From contig CDPCPM010000344.1 of assembly GCA_976551045.1 (NCBI GenBank), forward strand, positions 1,674,001 to 1,738,000: 64,000 bases of DNA, given 5' to 3'. Below are positions 1,420 to 29,700 of this stretch, piece after piece. Position 1 is the first letter of the stretch. Every line of letters begins with the position of its first letter. Made by a program: the position numbers and the translations under genes. This DNA comes from Glaucostegus cemiculus. Taxonomy: Eukaryota. The notes beneath the pieces were generated by a model. It saw nothing but the letters and a program-made list of their open reading frames with translations, was not told the origin of the DNA and did not search any database.

Positions 1420-1692
1420 CGGGGCGGCACCCTCCCTCTCAGGGGCAGCCTCCCTCCCTCCCTCCCAGGGGCACCTTCCTCCCTCCCAGGGGAAGCTCCC
1501 TCCCTCCCACCTTGGGAACGGCACCTTCCCTCCTGGGGGTGGCTCCCTCCCTCCCAGGGACAGCTCCCTCCCTCCCGGGGGAGTCTGTCTGTCTCCCTCC
1601 CTCCCAGGAGCAGCTCCCTCCCTCCCTGGGGGGTGGCTCCCTCCTTCCCGGGGGTGGCTCCCTCCCTCCCAGGGGGGCGCCTCCCTCCTGGG
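1420..1692. repeat. C-rich minisatellite with a unit of about 19-21 bp (gcagctccctccctcccaggg-like)
   Basis: About 13 degenerate tandem copies of ctccctccctcccagggg are visible. Confidence 0.85.
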
Positions 1693-2512
1693 CATGCCTC
1701 ACTACGTAGTTGGAAGTTTTCTGGCTGTTTGGTTATTTGTTACTTTCCCGGTTTCTCCTCCCTCTCTGTCTCACCCTGTCCTGGTTCCACGGACATTGCC
1801 GTCCCACGGAAACATTCCCGGGTGCCAGTTTGCCCATCCGTCAGTGTCGGTGTTAGTTGGTAATCACTGACAATCTCAACCACCATCAGCCAATGGCCAC
1901 AGGACCACCTTCCAGCTGTTAACCGGGTGAGGGAGTGGTGACCACGTCTGGAGTCCCAGTCTCAGTCCGACATCGTATCCCCTCAGTGTCCTGCCCACTG
2001 CCGAGTGTTTCAGCTCAGACAGTTCAACTATAGCCAGGGACCGGAGCTGGGATCTTTGTTTACAGTGTTAAACTACAAGGTGTGTCGACACTCGGAGCTG
2101 AGCTCATAACGTACAGTTTTGAATGATTCTCCCATGGTGACAGCAGGCTTCTCGCTAATGACGTGATCTTGCGTGCCTGACCGGTTTACACACTCACTCA
2201 CCGGTGTCTCCCCTTGACTTTCCAAACTGCTGACAAAATCAAGGTTTAAGAAGGTAATTGTGGGTCCGAGCTGTGGCTCCCGCCGCAATGCTGGGGGAAC
2301 GGATCATCTGGGAAAACGGGAAAGGAATGTGGCTTTTACAAATCTATAGGAGGTGTTAGCATGGGAACTGTGGATCAAGCTGCCGATGTTAAAGGGGTCT
2401 CTCAGCAGCAGAGCATTTTTAATGCAATAATCCTTCACCAAAGGTGCACCATTGCATCTGATCTGAGTTTGCTGTTTGCACTTTTTTCCCCTCTCCTCTC
2501 CTCTCTGTCCAG

Positions 2513-2593
2513 GCTGTCTCCTTATTTGGTTTCCTTCCACTGGGAAGTGGTGGCAGTGCTAAGAATTTGGAGAGGCGCATCCAAGAGCTGCAG
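2513..2593 (+). CDS. Candidate alternative in-frame cassette exon (AVSLFGFLPLGSGGSAKNLERRIQELQ)
   Basis: About 30-nt polypyrimidine tract then cag; 81 nt open in phase 0-0; cag/gtagct donor; TACTAAC at 2634-2640. Confidence 0.5.
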
Positions 2594-3719
2594 GTAGCTG
2601 CCCAGGTCTGGGCATCAGAACTTGCTCAGCGACTACTAACTCACTGCTTTCAGGCCATTCCATCCCAGCCAGCTGTGAGCAGATCCAGGGCAGCAGCATC
2701 AGGTGTCCAGGGCAGTGCAGATGTGCATCATCGTGTCCAGGCCAGCAGAGACATGCAGCATTGATAGCAGCAGATGTGCAGCAAGGATCCAGGGTGGTGG
2801 CAGATGTGCAATATGTATGCAAGTTAGCAGGCCTGCACTGGAGAGTCATGCACAGTGCACTGATAGCTTAGAATTAATTGTTTGACTGCATAAATGCTAC
2901 AATGGATCAGTTATTGACCTATTTTCTGACACTTCTCCCTCACCAGCACACACTTTTGTTCCCTTCGATGTTATCTTTTATCAAATTTAAAATAATTCTC
3001 ATCCCTAATTGGGCATCTGCTGGTTGGTAGGTTCTGGCTGGGACTCACATGGGAACTCCACCCATGTTTCCAACTTGTGTGGAGTTATTTTGGAGGACCC
3101 AGAACGTGGACCCAAGCCAAATCCCTGGTGCCAATAACTGGAAGAACACTCTGCATCGCTCCAGCACCCTTAAAGTGACAGAACCTTCCACAAATATTAT
3201 GGGAGAAAATTTACTACAGAGTCTCAGAAGAAAAAAAAATTAGGGTGTGACCAAAATCTTTGTCAAAGCAGTAACCCTCTATAAATTGTGAGTGCTCAGT
3301 GTGTTTGTAACCGCTAACAGGGTAGACTGCACCGACTGACACACGTGTGACACAAGAAGTTCATGCAAAGTGATTCCGGGTTATTTAGTGACTTATCATA
3401 GACCGTCTCTAGAATTTTCTCTCAACCCAGGGAGCAGTCAGTCACTTGACACGATCCTTAATTGTTACCTCAATGTAGTCACCCCGACGTTGTTTGCACT
3501 GATATTATGTGAAGTACCCGGCTTCAAGATCAATCTTACCTCCCCTTTCAGGAATTCTGTGGGGGGGTGTGCCCCTCACCCCACCCACCAAGTTCCCTTC
3601 AAAACACCGCAAATGGTTTTTGATTACTACTAAAATAGTTGTCCAACTTATTATACACAATAATCTACATGGGTCATCTGGAATGGTATTGTAGGCCAAG
3701 TCCATACCTGTACTCTACA

Positions 3720-8577: not shown

Positions 8578-8713
8578 GCCAAGATTGAACGAACCGACAT
8601 TGGAACTCTCATTATCCCTTCAATCACCGCTGCCCAGGCCGGTGTCTATCTGTGCGTGGGGACCAATACAGCTGGCTCCTCCGAAGGCCGTATTGAAGTC
8701 AAAGTCTTTGCCT
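8578..8713 (+). CDS. HSPG2: HSPG2 exon, C-terminal half of an Ig domain ([45 protein letters not shown])
   Basis: ttttccag acceptor, gtaagt donor, 136 nt, phase 0 to 1. Confidence 0.95.
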
Positions 8714-17700: not shown

Positions 17701-20700
17701 CACTTAAAATGTTGACTTGATGATATGAAGGCATTCACCCCTGCTGGGTCTCCAGAACCGATGGATGACGTATCGGGATGTTGTGTCAGTCATTTCAGAG
17801 CAAGTTTCTTCTCTTGGGCTTGTGAGTCTTTGTAATTCTGCATCACATAGGCCAGTGGAAACTCCAAGGTTAGCTGCTTTCCAGACGGAGATCAACAGAT
17901 GCATGAGGACGAGGGACTTTGAGAAAGGACAGTAAAGAGGATTAGGGGTGTTTGATCAGCCACGATATCATTGGCAGGTGGAGCAGGTTTGATCGGCTGT
18001 AAGGCCCAATTCGTGCCATGTTCTGTTCCCGTCCATCAACGTTGGAATGATTAATAGTAACCTGGCAATGATAATGGATCTAGGATTGTCCCAGTGGCTT
18101 GGAATAGAACTGAAAGCACGTGTGACACTGCACCACTCCCTTCTATGGTAGTGCAGCGGCTAGCATGACACTATTACAGCGTCAGTGATCCGGGTTCAAT
18201 TCCGGCCGCTGTCTGTAAGGAGTTTGTCCGTTCTCCCCGTGTCTGCGTGGCTTTCCTCCGGGTGCTCCAGTTCCCTCCCACATTCCAAAGCCATACAGGT
18301 TAGGAAGTTGTGGGCACGCTATGTCGGTGCTGGAAGTGTGGCGATACTTCACAGTAACACAAAAAGACACATTTCACAGTGGGTTTAGATGTACAGGTGA
18401 TTAATAAGTCAATATCTTGTATCTTTTTATGGCACTGAAATATAAACATGGATTATGTATTCAATCCTGTAGCCAGGTTTATTTTCCCAGTCCTGGCTCA
18501 GAGTCAAGAGGAGTACCAACGCGGCCAGCTGGAAAACCTGTTCCTCAGATAAATAACTCTGGCCAAAGCGTTGTCCCAGAGAGTCAACTGAAATATTTAA
18601 ACAGTTAACACAAGCTGTAGTTCCAGATAACAATACCAGAAACATGTTGTCCTCCAAGAAATAGGAGTATCGCTATTGTCCCATTTCAATCCACTTCTCT
18701 CATTCTAGTCTCTGCCCTTCCACAGCACAAAGTCAGCCCCCGACTGTGATGGTTTACCCCTCTCCTACCTCAGTAACCGAGGGAGAAATGGTGGAGTTAC
18801 ACTGCCAGATCACAGGACAGCCGCAGCCCAGGATCACATGGTACAGGATGGCCGGTTCTCTCACCGCCAACCACCAGGTAAGGAATGCGCTCCACTCTGT
18901 ATTTCTGAGCACTGGACCCAGTCTGGGCGAGTGTGAGTGACAGAGGCTGTGATTTTCCTCTCGCTGCTTCAGGTGCAGGGTCCTGTGCTGCGCATCCTTC
19001 ACGTGACTCCTGCCGACGCTGGGGATTACATCTGCCGCGCCGAGAACATCCTTGGAATGCAGGAGGTCAAATTCTCCGTCTCCATCACTTCAACGTGTAT
19101 GTACCCGTCATTCTCCAAAGTCTTTGGTCCGCACGAACTGTTCCCCTCATGTTGTGACTGCATCTGGGCTCAAAAGTGTGCTCGACTTCCAGTGCTGGGA
19201 AACAAGGTTCAGAAGGGTTTCAAGAGACAGTTTAATAATTAGAGAGTGTTATAGAAGGAAGGAGCACATCTCATAGATCAGTTAATTTAATATTAAGGAA
19301 GGGAAAGTGTTTCAGATCTGCAGCCAAGTAATTGGATTCATTAATGCCTCTTTTTTCATTTATAAATCGCCCATTAAAGCAGTTTACTAGAGAAACAAAG
19401 GACTGCAGATGCTGGAATCTTGATGAAAAACACGATGATGCTGGACGGACTCAGCAGGCCAGGCAGCATCCGTGGAGAAAAGCAGGCGGTCAACGTTTCA
19501 GGTCAGGACCCTTCTTCAGGACTGAAGACAGGAAAAGGGAGGGAAGCCCAGTATATGGGAGGGAAAAGCAGATCAGTGATAGGTGGACAAAAGAGGGGAG
19601 GTGGGGTGGGCACAGGGTGCTGATGGGTGGACACAGGCAAGAGATAGTGATAGGCAGGTGTAGGGGAGGAGGGGAGAGCAGATCCACCGGGGGGTGGGTC
19701 AAAGGTGAGGAGAAAAAAAGGGGGTAGGAAAAAGAGACAGAGGCTGGGAAAGGGAAGTAAAGAGGCATGGTTGTGGGGGAGGGGGGGAGGTGGGGGGATT
19801 ACTTAAAGTGGGAGAATTCAATGTTCATGCTGTTAGGCTGCAAGGTTCCAAGATGGAAAATGAGGTGATGTTCCTTCAGTTTGCGCTTGGAATTCTCCCG
19901 GCAGTGGAGGAGGCCGAGGACTGACATATCAGTGATAGTGAGGGAGGGGTCAGTCCTCAGCCTCCTCCACTGCCGGGAGAATTCCAAGCACAAACTGGAG
20001 CAACAGCACCTCATTTTCCGTCTTTGAACTTTGAAGCCTAATGACAACAGCATTGCATTCTCCCACTTTTAAGTAATCCCCACCCCCAACACCCCCACCG
20101 TGCCTCTTCTTCTCTTCCCTTTCCTGGTCTACCTCTCTTTTCTCAACCCCTCTTTGTTTTCCCCTCATCTTGACCCACCCCCCGGTGGATCTGCTCTCCC
20201 CTCCTCCCCCGCACCTGCCTATCACTATCTCTTACCTGCATCTACCTATCACCACCCTGTGCCCACCCCGCCTCCCCTCTTTTGTCCACCTATCACTGCT
20301 CTGCTTTTCCCTCCCGTATGTTCAGCTTCCCCTTTTCCTATCCTGCCCTGAAGAAGGGCCCTGACCCGAAACGTTGACCACCTGCTTTCCTCTACGGATG
20401 CTGCCTGGCCTGCTGAGTTCCTTCCAGCATCATCGTGTTTTTCATTCCATTAAAGGGGTTTTACTGGGTTAGGTCACACTAGTGATGATTTACTAGTGAA
20501 ATCATGCCTGTCGGGAAATTGGCTCCAGAAAATAATATCTCAGCAAGCCCTACTTCCCTGACATCCCCTGATCCTGCAGGAGGCACTTGAAATGGTGAGT
20601 GAGAACTTAGTCCAAAGGATGTTGCTGCTTTGGGATTCCAGGAAGTATTTGATGTGATTCCACATGCGAGCCTTTGAAGGATAGTTACAGATCACGGAGC

Positions 20701-23700
20701 TAATGGCAAGTTATCCAGTCAGACCGATAAGCAGCTTGGCAGTGGGAATTTATGCTAGTCCATGGAGTTTAGAGTAGACCATTAGCTGCACTGAAGCCAT
20801 GCAAGTGAAGGCCAATACTGCCAAACGTGAAATGTGGCAGCTACCTCAGAATTGGTGCATGGCATACACAGAGAGGATTGAGGTATTATTTTCACAGTGG
20901 TTATGCTTATGAAAACTGTGACAGGAAGCATAAAATATACTTGTCAACCAAATATATTTCACCCTCTATTGGAGCAGTAAACATGATTAAGTCTCGCTCA
21001 GTTGGCGCCCCAATTCATGAAATTGGCAAAAATAAGTTAGAAGGAGCACTAGGAGGAGCTTGTGCACAGAATCATGTGCCAAAATGGGATCTGTGAAGCC
21101 CCTGCTGGGAGAGTGTTGGGAGAAATAGAATCACTGTAGGGTGTGTGGATGGTCAGCACAGACTTGGGCTGAAGGGCCTGTTTCCATGCTGCACCTCTCT
21201 GTGACTGTGGCCCGTGCGTGCAGTGTTATCACTGCAGCGATTACTGGGAAGAGTGTCAGACCTTAATGCTGGAGGCAGGTGTAAATGACAATGCAGTTTG
21301 ATTCTTCATCTCCACACATTTAGAAAGAGGTGGACCCTCCACCACTCTCACCTTGGCTGTGAAATCCGATAATTGGGCCATAGTGTACGAGCCTGGTTTC
21401 CAGAAATCCGGACCACTGGCCCGGAGATGTATGTTTGAAATCCACCATGGCAGCTGTGGAATTCAATTACTTCAACAAAACCAGAGCTTAAAATACTAGA
21501 ATCAACAACAGTGACGGTAAAGCTACCAGAGAGTTGTAAATACCAATCGCAGAAAGAAAACTACCATCCCAGTGTGACTGATGCGATTGACTTTTAATTG
21601 TCTCTTTGAGTTAGGGACCATTAAGGATGGACGACAAACACTGATATTGCCAATCGTGTCCTCATTTCATGCATGAATAAATAAAATGTTGACGTGAACC
21701 ATGAGAGAAGGAGGAAGGTCACAGACAGAATGTAAACATTGCACGTTAGGAGTATGGATGCAGAAAGGCTGTTTTCCCCAGTCAAGGTTTCTAGAACAAG
21801 GGGATTAGTTTCAGATTAAGGAGTCAACCCATTCAGATGGAAGTGCGGGGAACTCCTTCTCTCAGAGGAGATGAATTTTTGGAATTCTGCATGCCAGGGA
21901 GCTGTGGAGGTGGAGCCATGGGACATATTGATGGAGACTGACTACAAGGGAGTTCAGGGTTCTGAAGAGAGCCTGAGGAATTTGTGCTGAAGCCAAGATT
22001 CGATCAATATGATCTTATTGAATGGGGAAGCAGGCTTGAGGTGCCACTTCACCACCTTCTCTTCCTTTTCCCCTTCCTTCCATTCTAATGTAACAAAAGA
22101 AATCCATGTTGTTCATTTTGATCTGTCTATATCGTTCTTATCTCTGCCCTTCCACAGCACAAATTCAGCCCCCGACTGTGATGGTTTACCCCTCTCCTAC
22201 CTCAGTAACCGAGGGAGAAATGGTGGAGTTACACTGCCAGATCACAGGACAGCCGCAGCCCAGGATCACATGGTACAGGATGGCCGGTTCTCTCACCGCC
22301 AACCACCAGGTAGGGAACCAGCTCCGCTCTGTATTTCTGAGCACTGGACCCAGTCTGGGCGAGTGTGAGTGACAGAGGCTGTGATTTTCCTCTCGCTGCT
22401 TCAGGTGCAGGGTCCTGTGCTGCGCATCCTTCACGTGACTCCTGCCGACGCTGGGGATTACATCTGCCGCGCCGAGAACGTCCTTGGAATGCAGGAGGTC
22501 AAATTCCCTGTCTCCATCACTTCAACGTGTACGTACCTGTCATTCTCCAAAGTCTTTGGTCCGCACGAACTGTTCCCCTCGCCCTTGCACCAAGTTGTGA
22601 CTGCATCTGGGCTCAAAAGAGTGCTCGATTTCCAATGCTGGGAAGGTTCAGAAGGGTTTCAAGAACAAATAACCAGAGAGTTTTATAGATGGAAGGAGCC
22701 AGTCTTGTAGATCAGTTAAATAAATATTTAAGGAGAGAAAATGTTTTAGATCTGTGGCCAAGAAATTGGATCCATTAATGCCTCTTTTTTTCAATTACAT
22801 ATTAACCATTAAAATGCTTTTCGCGGCTTAGATCACACATGATCACTTACCAGTGAATTTACGCCCATCGGGAACTTGGTCCCGGTGCTCACGCACACAA
22901 TCCATCTCCGCACATATGTGTTTTCTCAGCAGTTCAGGCGGCATCTGTGGAGGGAAAGCGGTGGTCAGTGTTTCAAGTCAAGACCCTGCATCAGGACTGA
23001 GTGTGTAGAGGGGGTGATAGCCAGTATGAAGAGGAGTGAGGGAGGGGTGAGGCAGGGGCTGGTAGGTGGTAGGTGGATCCAGGTGTGGAGGGAGGTGATG
23101 GGCAGGTGGAGCCAGGTGAGGGAGGAGGAGGGGTAGAATTGGGAGACAGCAGCTTGTGGGTGAAGGGTAGAGACAGGAGCGAGAATAAAAAGGGGCAGAT
23201 GGAGCCAGACGGGGTGGAGCTGGAGACAGTTTGGAAGGTGATAAGAGGAAGCACAAGAGGCTGCAGATGCTGGAATGTGATGAGTAAGAAAAGTGAACTA
23301 AGGAAATGGCACCAGATCAGGGAGGGGCAACGGGCAGACGGATCCAGGTGGGGCAGGGGAAACCCTGGGTGGATCAGAGAAGAGCACAGAGAGTGTGAAC
23401 ACCTGCCCTCTGTCCACAGTGGCCATCCTGAGCTCCCCGTCGCAAGCCACTTCAACTCCCCATCGCACACAGACCTGTCTGTTCTCGGCCTTCTCCACCA
23501 CCAGGGTGAGGCCACACACCAGCTTAAACAACAGCACCTCATGGTCCACCTGGCTATCTAAAACCATTGGTGTGGACATTGAATTCTCCCTGCTCAGGTA
23601 ACCCACACTCCTTACTCAACCACCTGATTCACCCAGGGTCTCCCCTCCCCCACCTGGTCCCATCCACCTCTCATCCACACACTGCACCTACTGGACCTCC

Positions 23701-26700
23701 TATCTCCTTCCCCAACTGGTTCCAACCGCCCATCATCACCCTCCCCCTCACCTGGTACCATCTATCGCCTGCCAGCCCCCACCCCACCCCACCCCGCCCC
23801 GCCCTCGCACCCCTTTATGCTGGCTACCTCCCCTCTGTGGTCAGACTTGATGCAGGGTCTCAGCCCAACATGTCGGCCATCCATTTGCCTCCATAGAAGC
23901 TGCCTGTCCCCCTGAGTTCCTCTAGTAGTTTGTCTGCTTTGCTCCGTATTCCACCATCTGCAGTCTCTCGTGCCCCTGTTTTCCCAGTGTCAGTCGTGCA
24001 CCTAATGACATCACAGGTCACGTGCCACACATATCCTCCAACGTCAGAATAAATCAGAGCTTTGGGTGTGACTTATGACCTTCATTAAACACATGATGTT
24101 GAGGTCGACAATGGAACCATTTCAAAGGTGTGCGTTCTGGCATCGACGTCTTGTTCACCGCATCAGTCTTATTGCTCAGTAGTAAGGAAACCCCATCTCA
24201 GCTTCTCCCTCACTGCTCACATCCAACGTTGCATGCAACATTGTCTGACCCCTTGACCATGCCGCACCTCAGTGTTCTGGGCCCATTCACAGTCAGTCTG
24301 TGCCTAAAACTTACAGGGCATAGGTTTAGGGCAAGGGTTAAGAGGCTGAGAAGGGATTTGAAGAAGAACCTTTGTACCCAGAGGGTGGTTGACATTGGGA
24401 GCGCACTGTCTGTGGGGGTGATGGAGGCAGAGCCTCTCACATCTGAGAAGTTTCTCGGCGAGCACTTGAATCGCCAAGGTGTAGAAAGCTGTTGACTAGT
24501 TTAATTTTTTTAAATTTTATTTACAACGCGGTAACAGGCCCTTTTGGCCCAACGAGTCCGCGCCGCCCATTTTAAATCCCCCAAATTACCTACCCGTACA
24601 TCTTTAGAATGTGGGAGGAAACCAGAGCACCCGGAGGAAACCCACGCAGACACAGGAGAACGTACAAACTCCTTACAGTTAGCGACGGGAATCGAACTTC
24701 GAGCGCTGGTGCTGTAACTGCGTCGCACTAACCGCTACGCTATCGTGCCGCCCTAAGTTCTGGTTAATGAGATCAGTATGGGCAGGTGGCTGATGGACTT
24801 GTGGGCCAAAGGGCCTGTTTCTGTACTGTATGACTGATTACAAGGGAAGTATCCACACAGGAGATGGATTACGCTCACCGCACACTCCTGTCCTGCATTT
24901 GACAGATACTGTACAGCTGCCAGAGGGAGAGTCCAATGAGGTCTGATACCCTCCCCAGCAATCAGTGCAACAATCACAGGGCAGATAAGAGATCCTCCTG
25001 CAGCTCCTGGCAGGAGCCATTCAGACCCCACTTTGGATGTGATCTGTGCACAAACCCCAATAACACTGTTTCTGGTGTAATTTTGCCAATTCCATGAATT
25101 TTTTGTATGGGTTCCACTTAAGCTATACTTAATCATGTTTGGTGGTTCAAAGTGAAAAAGGTTCACTTTGAAAAAGGTTCTTGAAATGCATAAGTTGTCT
25201 TCCCTTGAATCACAGTTTTCAAAGGTGTAATCTTCATGAAAATAATGTCCCAGTATGTCCTCCTTCCCTAACGTCTGTGGACAGAGAATGGGAAAAGCAG
25301 TTTTGAAGCCAAGATTGGATCAACCATGATCTTATTGACTGGCTGAGCAAGTGTGAGGGGCTGATTGGCAGACCCCTCCTGTGTAACTCACAGAATCTAT
25401 ATAGCCCACGATCAGATCTGCTCATCTCATTCTCATCTCCGCCCTTCCACAGCAGAAAGTCAGCCCCCGACTGTGATGGTTTACCCCTCTCCTACCTCAG
25501 TAACCGAGGGAGAAATGGTGGAGTTACACTGCCAGATCACAGGACAGCCGCAGCCCAGGATCACATGGTACAGGATGGCCGGTTCTCTCACCACCAACCA
25601 CCAGGTAGGGAACGTGCTCCACTCTGTATTTCTGAGCACTGGACCCAGTCTGGGCGAGTGTGAGTGACGGAGGCTGTGATTTTCCTCTCGCTGCTTCAGG
25701 TGCAGGGTCCTGTGCTGCGCATCCTTCACGTGACTCCTGCCGACGCTGGGGATTACATCTGCCGCGCGGAGAACGTCCTTGGAATGCAGGAGGTCAAATT
25801 CTCCGTCTCCATCACTTCCATATCAACCTGTATGTAACACATCATTATTTGAATGTTATTCATGCACCAACATTTACCCTTTATTTTGCTGGCATACCCA
25901 TCCCTAGTGTTGTTGGAAACCAAGAGTTTCTGGTATTGCTTGAAAGGTAGTCTCTTAACATAGTGATCCCGAGCTTTGGGAAAGCAGAGGTGTGAGTGGC
26001 ACAGTGGTGTGGCTGGTGGAACCGTTGCCTCTCAGCTCCAGAGACCCGGTTTCAATCCTAGCCCCCAGTGCTGTCTGTGTAGAGTTATCCCTGTGACTGT
26101 GTGACTTTACCCCACGTTCTCTGGATTTGTTCCACATCTCAAAGGCTTGCAGATTGGTAGGTTAATCGATGATTGTAAATTGTCCCTGGTGTGTAGGTAA
26201 GTGGGAGTTGCTGGGAACGTGGGGAGAATTGGGCTGCTCAGTGAGCTTGCATAGATTTTGGGCGGCACGATAGCATAGCAGTTAGCGAGACGCTGTTACA
26301 GCGCCAGCGAACGGGGTTCGATTCCCGTCGCTGACTGTAAGGAGTTTATATGTTCTCCCATGTCTACGTGGGTTTCCTCCGGGTGCTCCGGTTTCCTCCC
26401 ACATTCTAAAGATGTACAGGTAGGTTAATTTGGGGGTTTAAAATGGGCAGCGTGGACTCATTGGGCCAAAAGGGCCTGTTACCACGCTGTAAATTAAAAA
26501 AAAATTCCATGGACCATATGACCTCCTACATTGGAGAGGAATGTGAATTGCTTTGGACAAGTGAATGTTAATAGGTGAAGAAGTATGTTAGAGCTTCATG
26601 TTTTCTTGTTTTCCTCCAGCTTTGCTCTTTGTGGAAGCTGCCAGATCCCTCCCTGACCTTTAGAAACATTCAGAACTGTTGAAAGTGAAGTAAATGGTTC

Positions 26701-29700
26701 AAAAATATGAAACTTAATTGAAGATTTTGAAAAAAAAAATTCACCTGAAATGACTGAAGCTATGAGAAACACCACTGCCAACATAAATAAGCACCAAGGA
26801 TTCTCAGCAAGTTTGTGGTCTACCCCTTGCCAAGAGCTCTGATAGACTCACAGACTGCACCTCCAGCAAGCTTGAGACCCCTGTATTTGGATGCATGTGC
26901 ACTGCTAGCCTAACTGAATCGCCAAGGGTAAAGTACGGCCTTTCATTGCCCAGTAGGGTTTAGTCCTTGGGATAAACCCTACTGGGCCATGAATTTCTTC
27001 TGGATTTGAGAAGGTCTTTGCCGTGTGCACTTGAACCCTTTGGGTTGGTTCCCTCTTATTAAGTGCAGGGCTGAAATCCGATGAATTAACAAGAGAAGGA
27101 GCAGTGGCTGGAGGAGAAAGGTGCACAGAAGGATCCTGTTGTATTTAGATGGAACATGTTGGAGGCAGGAGAGAGGAAGATTGTCCATAATGCAGCCAAG
27201 GAGTGTACCTGCAGTTCAATAAGATACAGCTTCATTACTGTCTACTTTTCATATGTTGCTCCATTAAAATCCTCCTCTGCTCTCCACCTTTACACAGCAC
27301 AACAAACTGCTCCCCAGGTGAGGGTTTACTCCTCTCCCAGGACGATAACAGAGGGACAAATGTTGGAGTTACACTGCCAGGCCACAGGACAACCAGAACC
27401 CAGGGTCACTTGGTACAGGGCAGCTGGCCCTCTAACAGCCAATCACCAGGTAAGTCAAGGTTGTGAGCAACGGTGGACATTCCCTTCAGGAGATGTCATT
27501 TTACCCAGACACAGTGAGTGTGGGACTCATGGCTTCAGTCATATCACAGTGGAAGGAGGGAGCTTTGCTGAAGAGATATCCAAATGGGATTGTGTCCGAC
27601 CCTCAGACAATGAGGTCTTGCGGACGTGGTTGCTATGCTGTGGCAGAGATTGTTTTGAAGTGGAGGAGGAGGGAGGTATGGCTGTTCCAGCGAGCGACTG
27701 TATCAGCAGACTGTGAAGGGCTGACTGAACACCTGTACTTGTATGTATTACAAGCATACATTCCCGGTGAAGGGGTAAGTTCAAAGGAGATCTATGGGGC
27801 AAGTTTTATTTACACAGGGAGTGGTGGGTGCCTAGAATGTTCTGCCAGGGGTGGTGTGGTGGTGGAGGCAGATATGATAGAGGTGTCCAAGATGCATTTC
27901 ATATGGATGTGCTGAAAATGGAAAGAGATGGACATGGTGTAGGCTGAAGGGTTTAGTTTAGTTAGGTGTTTAATTACTAGTTTAATGAGTTTGGCACAAT
28001 ATCATGTGCTGAAGGGCCTGTTCCTGTGCTGTGCTATTCTATGGGACCAATGGAGGAAGGTGGTGTCCGAGTGAGATAGCAGCTACAATGCCAGCGAGTG
28101 TGTGTCAGTGGGCAGGAAGGGAAGGTGCAGCTTCAGGATCAAGCGACAAGGTCAAGGCAAAACCACGTCATTGCCTGCAAGAGTGCTTGTAGCAACTTGC
28201 AGTGGAACGCTTGTACATGTGGGCAATGATGGCCATCTTCAGCGTGGAGTTTGTTGCTGCATGTTGAGGGCACACTGCAGTGCTGAGCCCTGGGCTGACA
28301 ACCTTAAACAGCACAGAGGGAAACCACTCCATGGAATTTAGAAGAGTGAGGGGTGATCTTTTTGCAGCATATAAGATCCCAACGGGCATGACGGAGTAGA
28401 TGTTGAGATGTTTCCACTAAGTGGGAGGGGCTCGAGTAAGGGGACGTAGTTAAGAGATAAGGGGGCAATCATTTAGAACTGAGGTGCTTAGGAATTTCTT
28501 CTCAGAGAGTGTGGTGATTCTCGGGAATTCTCTACGCCTGAGGGCGGGAGAGGCCAGACGTGAGAAGAGCTGGATAAATTCTTGGAAGATCAGGGATTTC
28601 AGGGCCAGGAGCAGCTGGCACAGAGAAAACATTGAGGCCTGGGCAGAACAGCCATAATCATGATGAATGGCAGGAGAAGTTTGACGGGCTGAGTGGCTGA
28701 TTCTGCCCCGTGAGCTCCTTTTCTAGTTTCAGTGACCACTGCCAAATATGACAAGCCAGGCTAATTATCTTGCTTCCCTTTAAATTTCAGCTGGGTCTTA
28801 ACACTGGAATCATCCCTGGACCTATTTGTTTGACTCTGGAATGGTATCTAATTATTAATCTTTGAGTGGAGAGTACACAGGAACAGGATTGGGTCTTTCC
28901 ACCCATGGTCTAGCAGGGTGCTGCGGCATTTGGGACCAGTTGTATGAGATGAACGGTTCAGCCCCCATTTCTCCAGCTGCCCACTGTGTTGAGGCTCCCA
29001 GTATGTTGTGCAGGCACTAGACCCAGTCTGGGTGAGTGTGAGTGACAGAGGCTGTGATTTTCCTCTCACTGCTTCAGGTGCAGGGTCCTGTGCTGCGCAT
29101 CCTTCGCTTGACTCCCGCCGACGCTGGGGATTACATCTGCCGCGCCCAGAACATCCTTGGAATGCAGGAGGTCAAATTCTCCGTCTTGGTCAGCTCCACG
29201 CCATCCTGTACGTAACTTGTCATTCTTGTCCTGTGTGTTTCGTTAACGTCCTTTGATCTCACCACTCTTAGCATTCACTTGCAGAGTAGCATTTTGTTTG
29301 TGGTTTAGGGCAAGTTTGATTGTCAAGTAATGAACCCAGGAAGATTGTAAGCTCTCCTACAACTGGTGATCCCATGGCTGCATTCAGTGCCAGCTCTGCT
29401 CAAGGCTGCCCAGTGTAACAAAGGGCCAAATGCCTGTTTCAGGCACTGGCCCCTGATGCTTATTTTCCTGCTGTCACCAATATTTTGCCCTTAAGACCAC
29501 ATTAATACTCCCCACCCTGCAGCCGTGTTGGGTGTAACTACCACCATAGATGTGTATGGTGCCATCAGATCTGTGGGTCTCAGTGTTTGCTCATAGGCAC
29601 AGGAAAGCGATTGTATTCCTGAAGGTGAATTGTTTTTAAGCAGGGTTAAATAAGAATTTTGCTGCTCAAAAATGAGCATTGTTTTTAGATCTGATTTGTG

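Follow-up and report, generated by a model that had tools for sequence, protein, structure and literature searches.

We describe a conserved cassette exon within the fifth Ig domain (Ig5) of perlecan and favor, on balance, the reading that it is a splice switch, likely tissue- or stage-specific, that changes Ig5 binding. Judged from its own sequence and that of its homologs, the exon is real and ancient, and it is almost certainly an alternative exon. It lies in the window, by which we mean the whole 64,000-nt stretch analyzed (G000:C344:1674001-1738000).

An in-frame cassette exon splits perlecan Ig5

The exon, at 2513-2593 of the window, sits between the two half-exons that encode Ig5. Immediately before the window is the upstream half-exon (G000:C344:1673568-1673713), which ends in ...LPPQ in phase 0; the downstream half-exon (8578-8713) begins in phase 0. 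The cassette therefore joins in phase 0 on both sides, and its 81 nt keep the frame in both the included and the skipped form. An AG acceptor at 2511-2512, behind a long pyrimidine run, precedes an open frame that encodes the 27 residues AVSLFGFLPLGSGGSAKNLERRIQELQ, and the donor CAG/GTAGCT follows directly, making this an internal exon bounded by AG and GT sites. Its presence divides the intron of Ig5 into introns of 2,799 and 5,984 nt. The features of the region are as follows, with the words at 2457-2467 taken as candidate branch points:

2457-2467, + strand: two branch-point-like words, CTGAT (A at 2461, 52 nt before the exon) and CTGAG (A at 2466, 47 nt before the exon)
2468-2512, + strand: AG-free pyrimidine tract and 3′ splice site; CU repeats (CCTCT x3.2), possible PTB sites
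2513-2593, + strand: 81-nt phase 0-0 cassette exon, inserting 27 aa in perlecan Ig5
2594-2599, + strand: 5′ splice site GTAGCT, 9.8 bits
2634-2640, + strand: TACTAAC, a candidate element of the QKI type at +41 to +47 of the downstream intron
8578-8713, + strand: second half-exon of Ig5, spliced directly to the upstream half-exon when the cassette is skipped

The preliminary description of this DNA had proposed an 81-nt phase-0 cassette exon, and the AG, open frame, donor and TACTAAC are all present as it described; its claim that inclusion keeps the frame and inserts 27 aa into a perlecan Ig domain also held, with phase 0 at both flanks. Its ranking of the splice sites did not. It had called the acceptor very strong and the donor moderate. 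We scored both with matrices trained on 31 donors and 31 acceptors elsewhere in the same gene, 32 junctions being refinable out of 45 chained matches. The acceptor is instead the median for the gene at 7.8 bits (15/31 others lower), and the donor is high at 9.8 bits, with 28/31 others lower in this small training set. Many donors of the perlecan gene have no G at +5 (gtaaca, gtaccg, gtagag, gtagca, gtacca), so the cassette donor is not weak for this gene. Across 71,347 intronic bases, we found no pseudo-exon that matched both site scores and was open in phase 0. Passages of PMC12064062 define a microexon as 51 nt or less, and this exon, at 81 nt here and an implied 78-81 nt in homologs, is longer.

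The intron before the exon carries a GC-rich 21/44-nt minisatellite (window 1430-1688). Beyond the donor, the exon's frame stays open for 56 further codons (window 2594-2764) in a loosely repetitive, CAG-rich stretch that has no homolog in its own genome, and this extended frame is probably due to chance. A longer exon using a second donor (2605/2606, score 4.5) was considered and rejected, as the homologs all stop at an ...ELQ-type boundary. With common words skipped, DNA and protein searches of the genome for a repeat or transposon origin matched this locus alone at E below 2.

Homologous inserts occur from sharks to squamates

Searching with the upstream exon gave 150 representatives, among which five vertebrate perlecans spanned the site, and two of the five had a 26-residue insert at the junction. 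A second search, with a query that held the insert, together with three cluster look-ups brought the total to 478 proteins. Of these, 154 had no orthologous site, leaving 324 fetched perlecan models that cover it: 134 carry the insert and 190 skip it. Insert-bearing models are over-counted in these figures because the second search contributed the best 120 of 255 matches with the insert in the query. All homologous inserts are predicted gene models as opposed to observed proteins. Among proteins of up to 2000 aa, the upstream exon had no homolog in a further search; perlecan is longer than that.

The insert is 27 aa in sharks and in turtles and squamates (25 in one), and 26 aa in sturgeon, teleosts, coelacanth, lungfish, caecilians, a salamander and frogs (25 in one). 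Both forms occur in 15 species-level model sets, drawn from fishes (Stegostoma, Chiloscyllium, two Alosa sets, Scleropages, Latimeria and Protopterus), amphibians (Rhinatrema, Xenopus tropicalis, Dendropsophus with nine models including the insert and six without, Hyperolius and Ranitomeya) and reptiles (Chrysemys, Paroedura and Liasis). Between isoforms of Chiloscyllium, Stegostoma and Dendropsophus, the insert is a clean deletion block. The predicted perlecan isoforms XP_072442898.1, XP_059511622.1, XP_069802948.1 and XP_031762630.1 are orthologs with the same exon at the same site.

When the shark insert was slid ungapped over the 8.9-kb intron in three forward frames, it scored 74 exactly at 2513-2593, and the next best score was 11. 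By tblastn, the shark perlecan chain runs collinearly through the cassette exon, and the flanking exons are 84-93% identical to shark perlecan, which marks the host as a cartilaginous fish rather than a mammal. The preliminary description had staked the exon on a frame conserved in related species, and the insert is indeed conserved from sharks to squamates, with both forms in gene models.

We aligned 36 distinct homologs with the insert of the window, giving 37 sequences. A1, G6 and F7 never vary, position 2 is L, V, I or M and position 19 is L or I in every sequence, position 22 is R in 35/37 and position 26 is L in 33/37. Most of the sequences end in R-R-I-Q-E-L-Q. The insert of the window shares 16/27 residues with that of Stegostoma. 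Since the invariant residues are kept from sharks to lizards, the optional insert must be under selection. The mid-region is S/G/N-rich in homologs, with different residues, and the Gly-rich GSGG middle is particular to this genome; the GSGGS turn named by the preliminary description is thus not a shared feature. Over the 37 inserts, we rejected two motif readings, a glycosaminoglycan site at GSG and a furin site at RR, each being either not conserved or off the usual consensus.

Absence of the insert is harder to read. None of 34 bird models carries it (about 28 sets; two bird labels were guessed), nor do any of three crocodile models or of six mammal models from two species. Meerkat and bat models read LPPQ/ARSERTD across the junction, the reading that the preliminary description had given for human perlecan without an insert. 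Models also often omit the exon in clades that have it, as in Carcharodon (0/4), Heterodontus (0/6), Pogona (0/15), Zootoca (0/9) and Python (0/5). Given such omissions, loss of the exon is plausible for birds from these models and may have occurred in mammals. A search with the turtle insert region gave 7/75 candidates, all turtles or squamates; it missed known insert-bearing lizards and is uninformative on birds and mammals.

Skipped transcripts dominate in a related species

We read 18-24% of each of three raw RNA runs, all from one study of a related species with unlabelled tissues. Reads joining the flanking exons directly numbered 32, 5 and 11 (48 in total); a position 12 nt before the junction was covered by 44, 6 and 13 reads. 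Inclusion reads were absent from the three runs, and the 310-nt bin that contains the exon reached depths of 0, 0 and 0.06. Skipped transcripts therefore exist, as seen in the 48 reads of the relative and in 190 models, and skipping is the main form in the relative's three samples if its exon is at least 80% alike. Inclusion is a prediction from the 134 gene models of other species. In a DNA-like run, X1, depth was 1.18 in the exon's bin with no piece listed there, which hints at local conservation.

Dominant skipping in the relative is what would be expected of a chance pseudo-exon or a decayed exon that has gone out of use in this species, and the middle of the peptide has drifted from two shark forms. 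Yet the exon retains its identity to Stegostoma, the three invariant residues, both splice sites and the shark length, and it is a single copy in the genome with no repeat origin seen. We regard decay or chance as a remote prospect, and prefer the reading of a functional alternative exon.

The insert is predicted to add a strand and a helix to an intact Ig core

By counting Cys motifs, we identified the host domain as the fifth Ig of perlecan and the fourth of domain IV. In five insert-bearing models, a Cys-Cys spacing of 74-75 occurs only in Ig5, against 44-51 in the other repeats caught by the pattern. The fold of Ig5 matches I-set domains and perlecan IG3 (1gl4_B), and ESM Atlas likewise returned an I-set Ig for the upstream exon.

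For structure prediction by AlphaFold2, we used natural shark domains as stand-ins, Chiloscyllium with the insert and Carcharodon without. The insert-bearing model, made from a 30-row alignment on a stand-in that shares 15/27 insert residues with the window, has a mean pLDDT of 86, with the core above 90 and 79/121 residues at or above 90; residues 51-80 stand at 64-68. Insert residues form a strand at 50-53 and a 12-residue helix at 64-75, and the native segment, now at 77-80, is coil. Without the insert, mean pLDDT is 95 and strand 50-53 is formed by the native KVER. A swap of this strand by the insert is a low-confidence prediction, and Pro at insert position 3 in 11/37 sequences would fit poorly in a regular strand. 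The hydrophobic start and C-terminal helix that the preliminary description had proposed agree with conservation and with the AlphaFold2 model.

The helix is better argued from its pattern than from its moment. The hydrophobic moment was not clearly above shuffles (0.64 and p 0.055 for the window, with 2/36 homologs under 0.05). Hydrophobic residues at positions 16, 19, 23 and 26 (a-d-a-d), with R, Q and E between them, are conserved across the 37 sequences, and this sequence pattern is what suggests an amphipathic helix. The same L/I heptads could pair two perlecans through their helices, or bind a coiled-coil partner, altering perlecan assembly in the matrix. However, the pattern suits packing of the helix on its own domain just as well, and two heptads are short for a coiled coil. 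A homodimer prediction of the insert-bearing domain scored 0.00, with the alignment not used. Pairing between perlecans is, in our estimate, fairly improbable.

Alternatively, the insert might be a lipid patch, its aromatic start and basic amphipathic helix tying perlecan to sulfatide-rich surfaces such as those of QKI-active glia. The insert does contain an F-G-F type aromatic motif and an RR-bearing helix, and Ig5 is said to be a sulfatide module. PMC4315246 and PMC2171891 describe perlecan at nodes of Ranvier, to which it is recruited, and sulfatide as an anchor of the Schwann-cell basement membrane. However, the acidic residues of the helix equal the basic ones in number in most species, and the unremarkable hydrophobic moment also speaks against this reading, leaving a lipid patch very unlikely.

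A proposed switch in Ig5 binding

We propose that inclusion of the cassette adds 27 residues between the Ig5 halves, predicted to fold as a short hydrophobic strand followed by a loop and a helix while the Ig core stays intact. The model predicts that the first insert residues become the strand directly after LPPQ, displacing the native basic K/R-x-E-R segment into a loop behind the helix. Such displacement would remodel the basic face of Ig5 and add a helical surface. Work attributed to Hopf in 2001 reportedly mapped heparin and sulfatide binding to arginines of IG5 and fibronectin binding to IG4-5; our literature search found no passage confirming this ligand map. Both the bat and the shark skipped forms have Arg23, Arg27 and Arg53 in this domain, and the insert enters just before the segment holding residue 53. 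Domain IV as a whole binds nidogens, fibronectin, fibulin-2 and heparin, according to passages of PMC9010944 and PMC6266596. We infer that the insert rather likely changes a binding property.

Instead of altering ligand contacts, inclusion could create a protease-sensitive loop with an MMP-like P-Q-A-hydrophobic junction, so that the long form is cut inside Ig5. The junction resembles the MMP site consensus. Position 2 of the insert is hydrophobic in 37/37 sequences and follows an invariant A, a place taken by K, R, H or the like in the skipped form, and passages of PMC9010944 describe domain IV as MMP-susceptible. However, Pro is at the P3 place in only 20/36 inserts (LPPQ in 18, LPPK in 1, LPPL in 1), the Ig disulfide ties both halves so that a cut would release no fragment, the junction residues are modelled in a strand by AlphaFold2, and cleavage leaves the conserved GF and helix unexplained. 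Together this makes a protease loop distinctly improbable, and we retain a change in Ig5 binding as the preferred reading.

Candidate regulators of inclusion

The sequence around the exon suggests how inclusion could be controlled. According to passages of PMC9122611, QKI-driven inclusion is associated with ACUAA downstream of the exon, and skipping with CU-rich PTB motifs. The exon has ACTAAC at +42, a motif of QKI-activated exons with a chance occurrence of 3.3% per 100 nt, and an ACTAAC-type motif follows 1/31 other donors of the gene. We speculate that PTB-type CU repeats at the acceptor would repress the exon by default and that QKI bound to the downstream ACUAAC may switch it on, both being weaker steps of the proposal than the structural ones. 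A single hexamer at this background offers thin support for QKI, whose involvement we consider possible, a little short of an even chance. We rejected QKI control as a feature common to the optional exons of this gene, since three of the others have no ACTAAY within 150 nt downstream.

The preliminary description had also suggested a muscle bias. We consider this doubtful, and passages of PMC9786888 report QKI as also active in neural, vascular and other cells. A more specific scenario is that a QKI-driven switch of jawed vertebrates, acting in glia or muscle, swaps a strand of the heparin- and sulfatide-binding Ig5 and adds the helix, turning the old surface off and a new one on, from sharks to lizards, with loss in birds and perhaps mammals. 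This full scenario is unlikely; if the QKI switch is true, it would have been overlooked since the field works on mouse and human perlecan.

Other optional exons and repeats of the perlecan gene

Several further optional segments were seen in the gene. A 209-residue block of domain III (190 in a frog) is present in this genome's exon chain upstream of the window (G000:C344:1616970-1626300), and its first exon, of 13 residues, can be skipped alone. An optional exon of 18 residues in the Ig3-Ig4 linker has its likely ortholog at G000:C344:1659422-1659475 (score 34 versus 22 for the next, with approximate boundaries), and in frogs an optional exon of 20 residues occupies this position; Ig3 is the nidogen-binding module of 1gl4. 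In domain V, an optional 17-residue exon (G000:C344:1777063-1777113) ends in ...EGSA beside a possible glycosaminoglycan site and is optional in sharks and a frog, and a 6-residue optional piece is found in the first LG domain of Stegostoma and Dendropsophus. Within the window, at 18665-29212, several Ig exon pairs are near-identical, including their intron flanks (frames 18937, 22369, 25664 and 29042), which points to recent tandem duplication or homogenization of domain IV repeats.

Comparison with known inserts and biological meaning

Two known systems resemble the perlecan cassette, with no sequence kinship implied. VASE of NCAM1, an insert in an Ig domain, is regulated in development and alters function, and meA of PTPRD, PTPRS and LAR is likewise placed in an Ig domain, whose fold it preserves while determining which ligand is bound (passages of PMC2120034 and PMC12598525). 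By prediction only, the perlecan Ig core likewise stays folded around its insert, at the core pLDDT given above. However, VASE is 10 residues in a cell-surface receptor and meA is a neural microexon of 3-9 residues with known ligands, whereas the perlecan insert, about three times longer, belongs to a secreted matrix protein and has 26-27 residues that include a predicted helix.

Perlecan splicing is regulated elsewhere too. The worm gene C. elegans unc-52, unlike the cassette described here, skips whole Ig repeats as opposed to gaining residues inside one. Passages of PMC6613909 and PMC6266596 describe its control by MEC-8, an RBPMS-regulated exon of rat Hspg2 and miniperl. The rat exon is about 51 nt by the coordinates in the supplement of PMC6613909, making it another, shorter exon, which from a reading of the primers may lie near domain I. 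Vertebrate perlecan is credited with only a few splice variants of unknown function in passages of PMC6266596, and the exon is unmentioned in the review passages of PMC6266596, PMC9010944, PMC4859157 and PMC6978720. A literature search covering few subscription journals returned no title or abstract on it; supplementary exon catalogues may list it. The RefSeq and GenBank isoforms of sharks, bony fishes, amphibians and reptiles are automatic and carry no description or function, and this genome's copy differs from them in its Gly-rich mid-region. The exon is thus already in RefSeq predictions and apparently undescribed in papers.

Studies of fish and frog perlecan would be handling isoforms that mouse models may lack, and the exon is a candidate for lineage-specific loss in birds and mammals. 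The insert sits in a ligand-binding part of domain IV, where splicing may tune the basement membrane.
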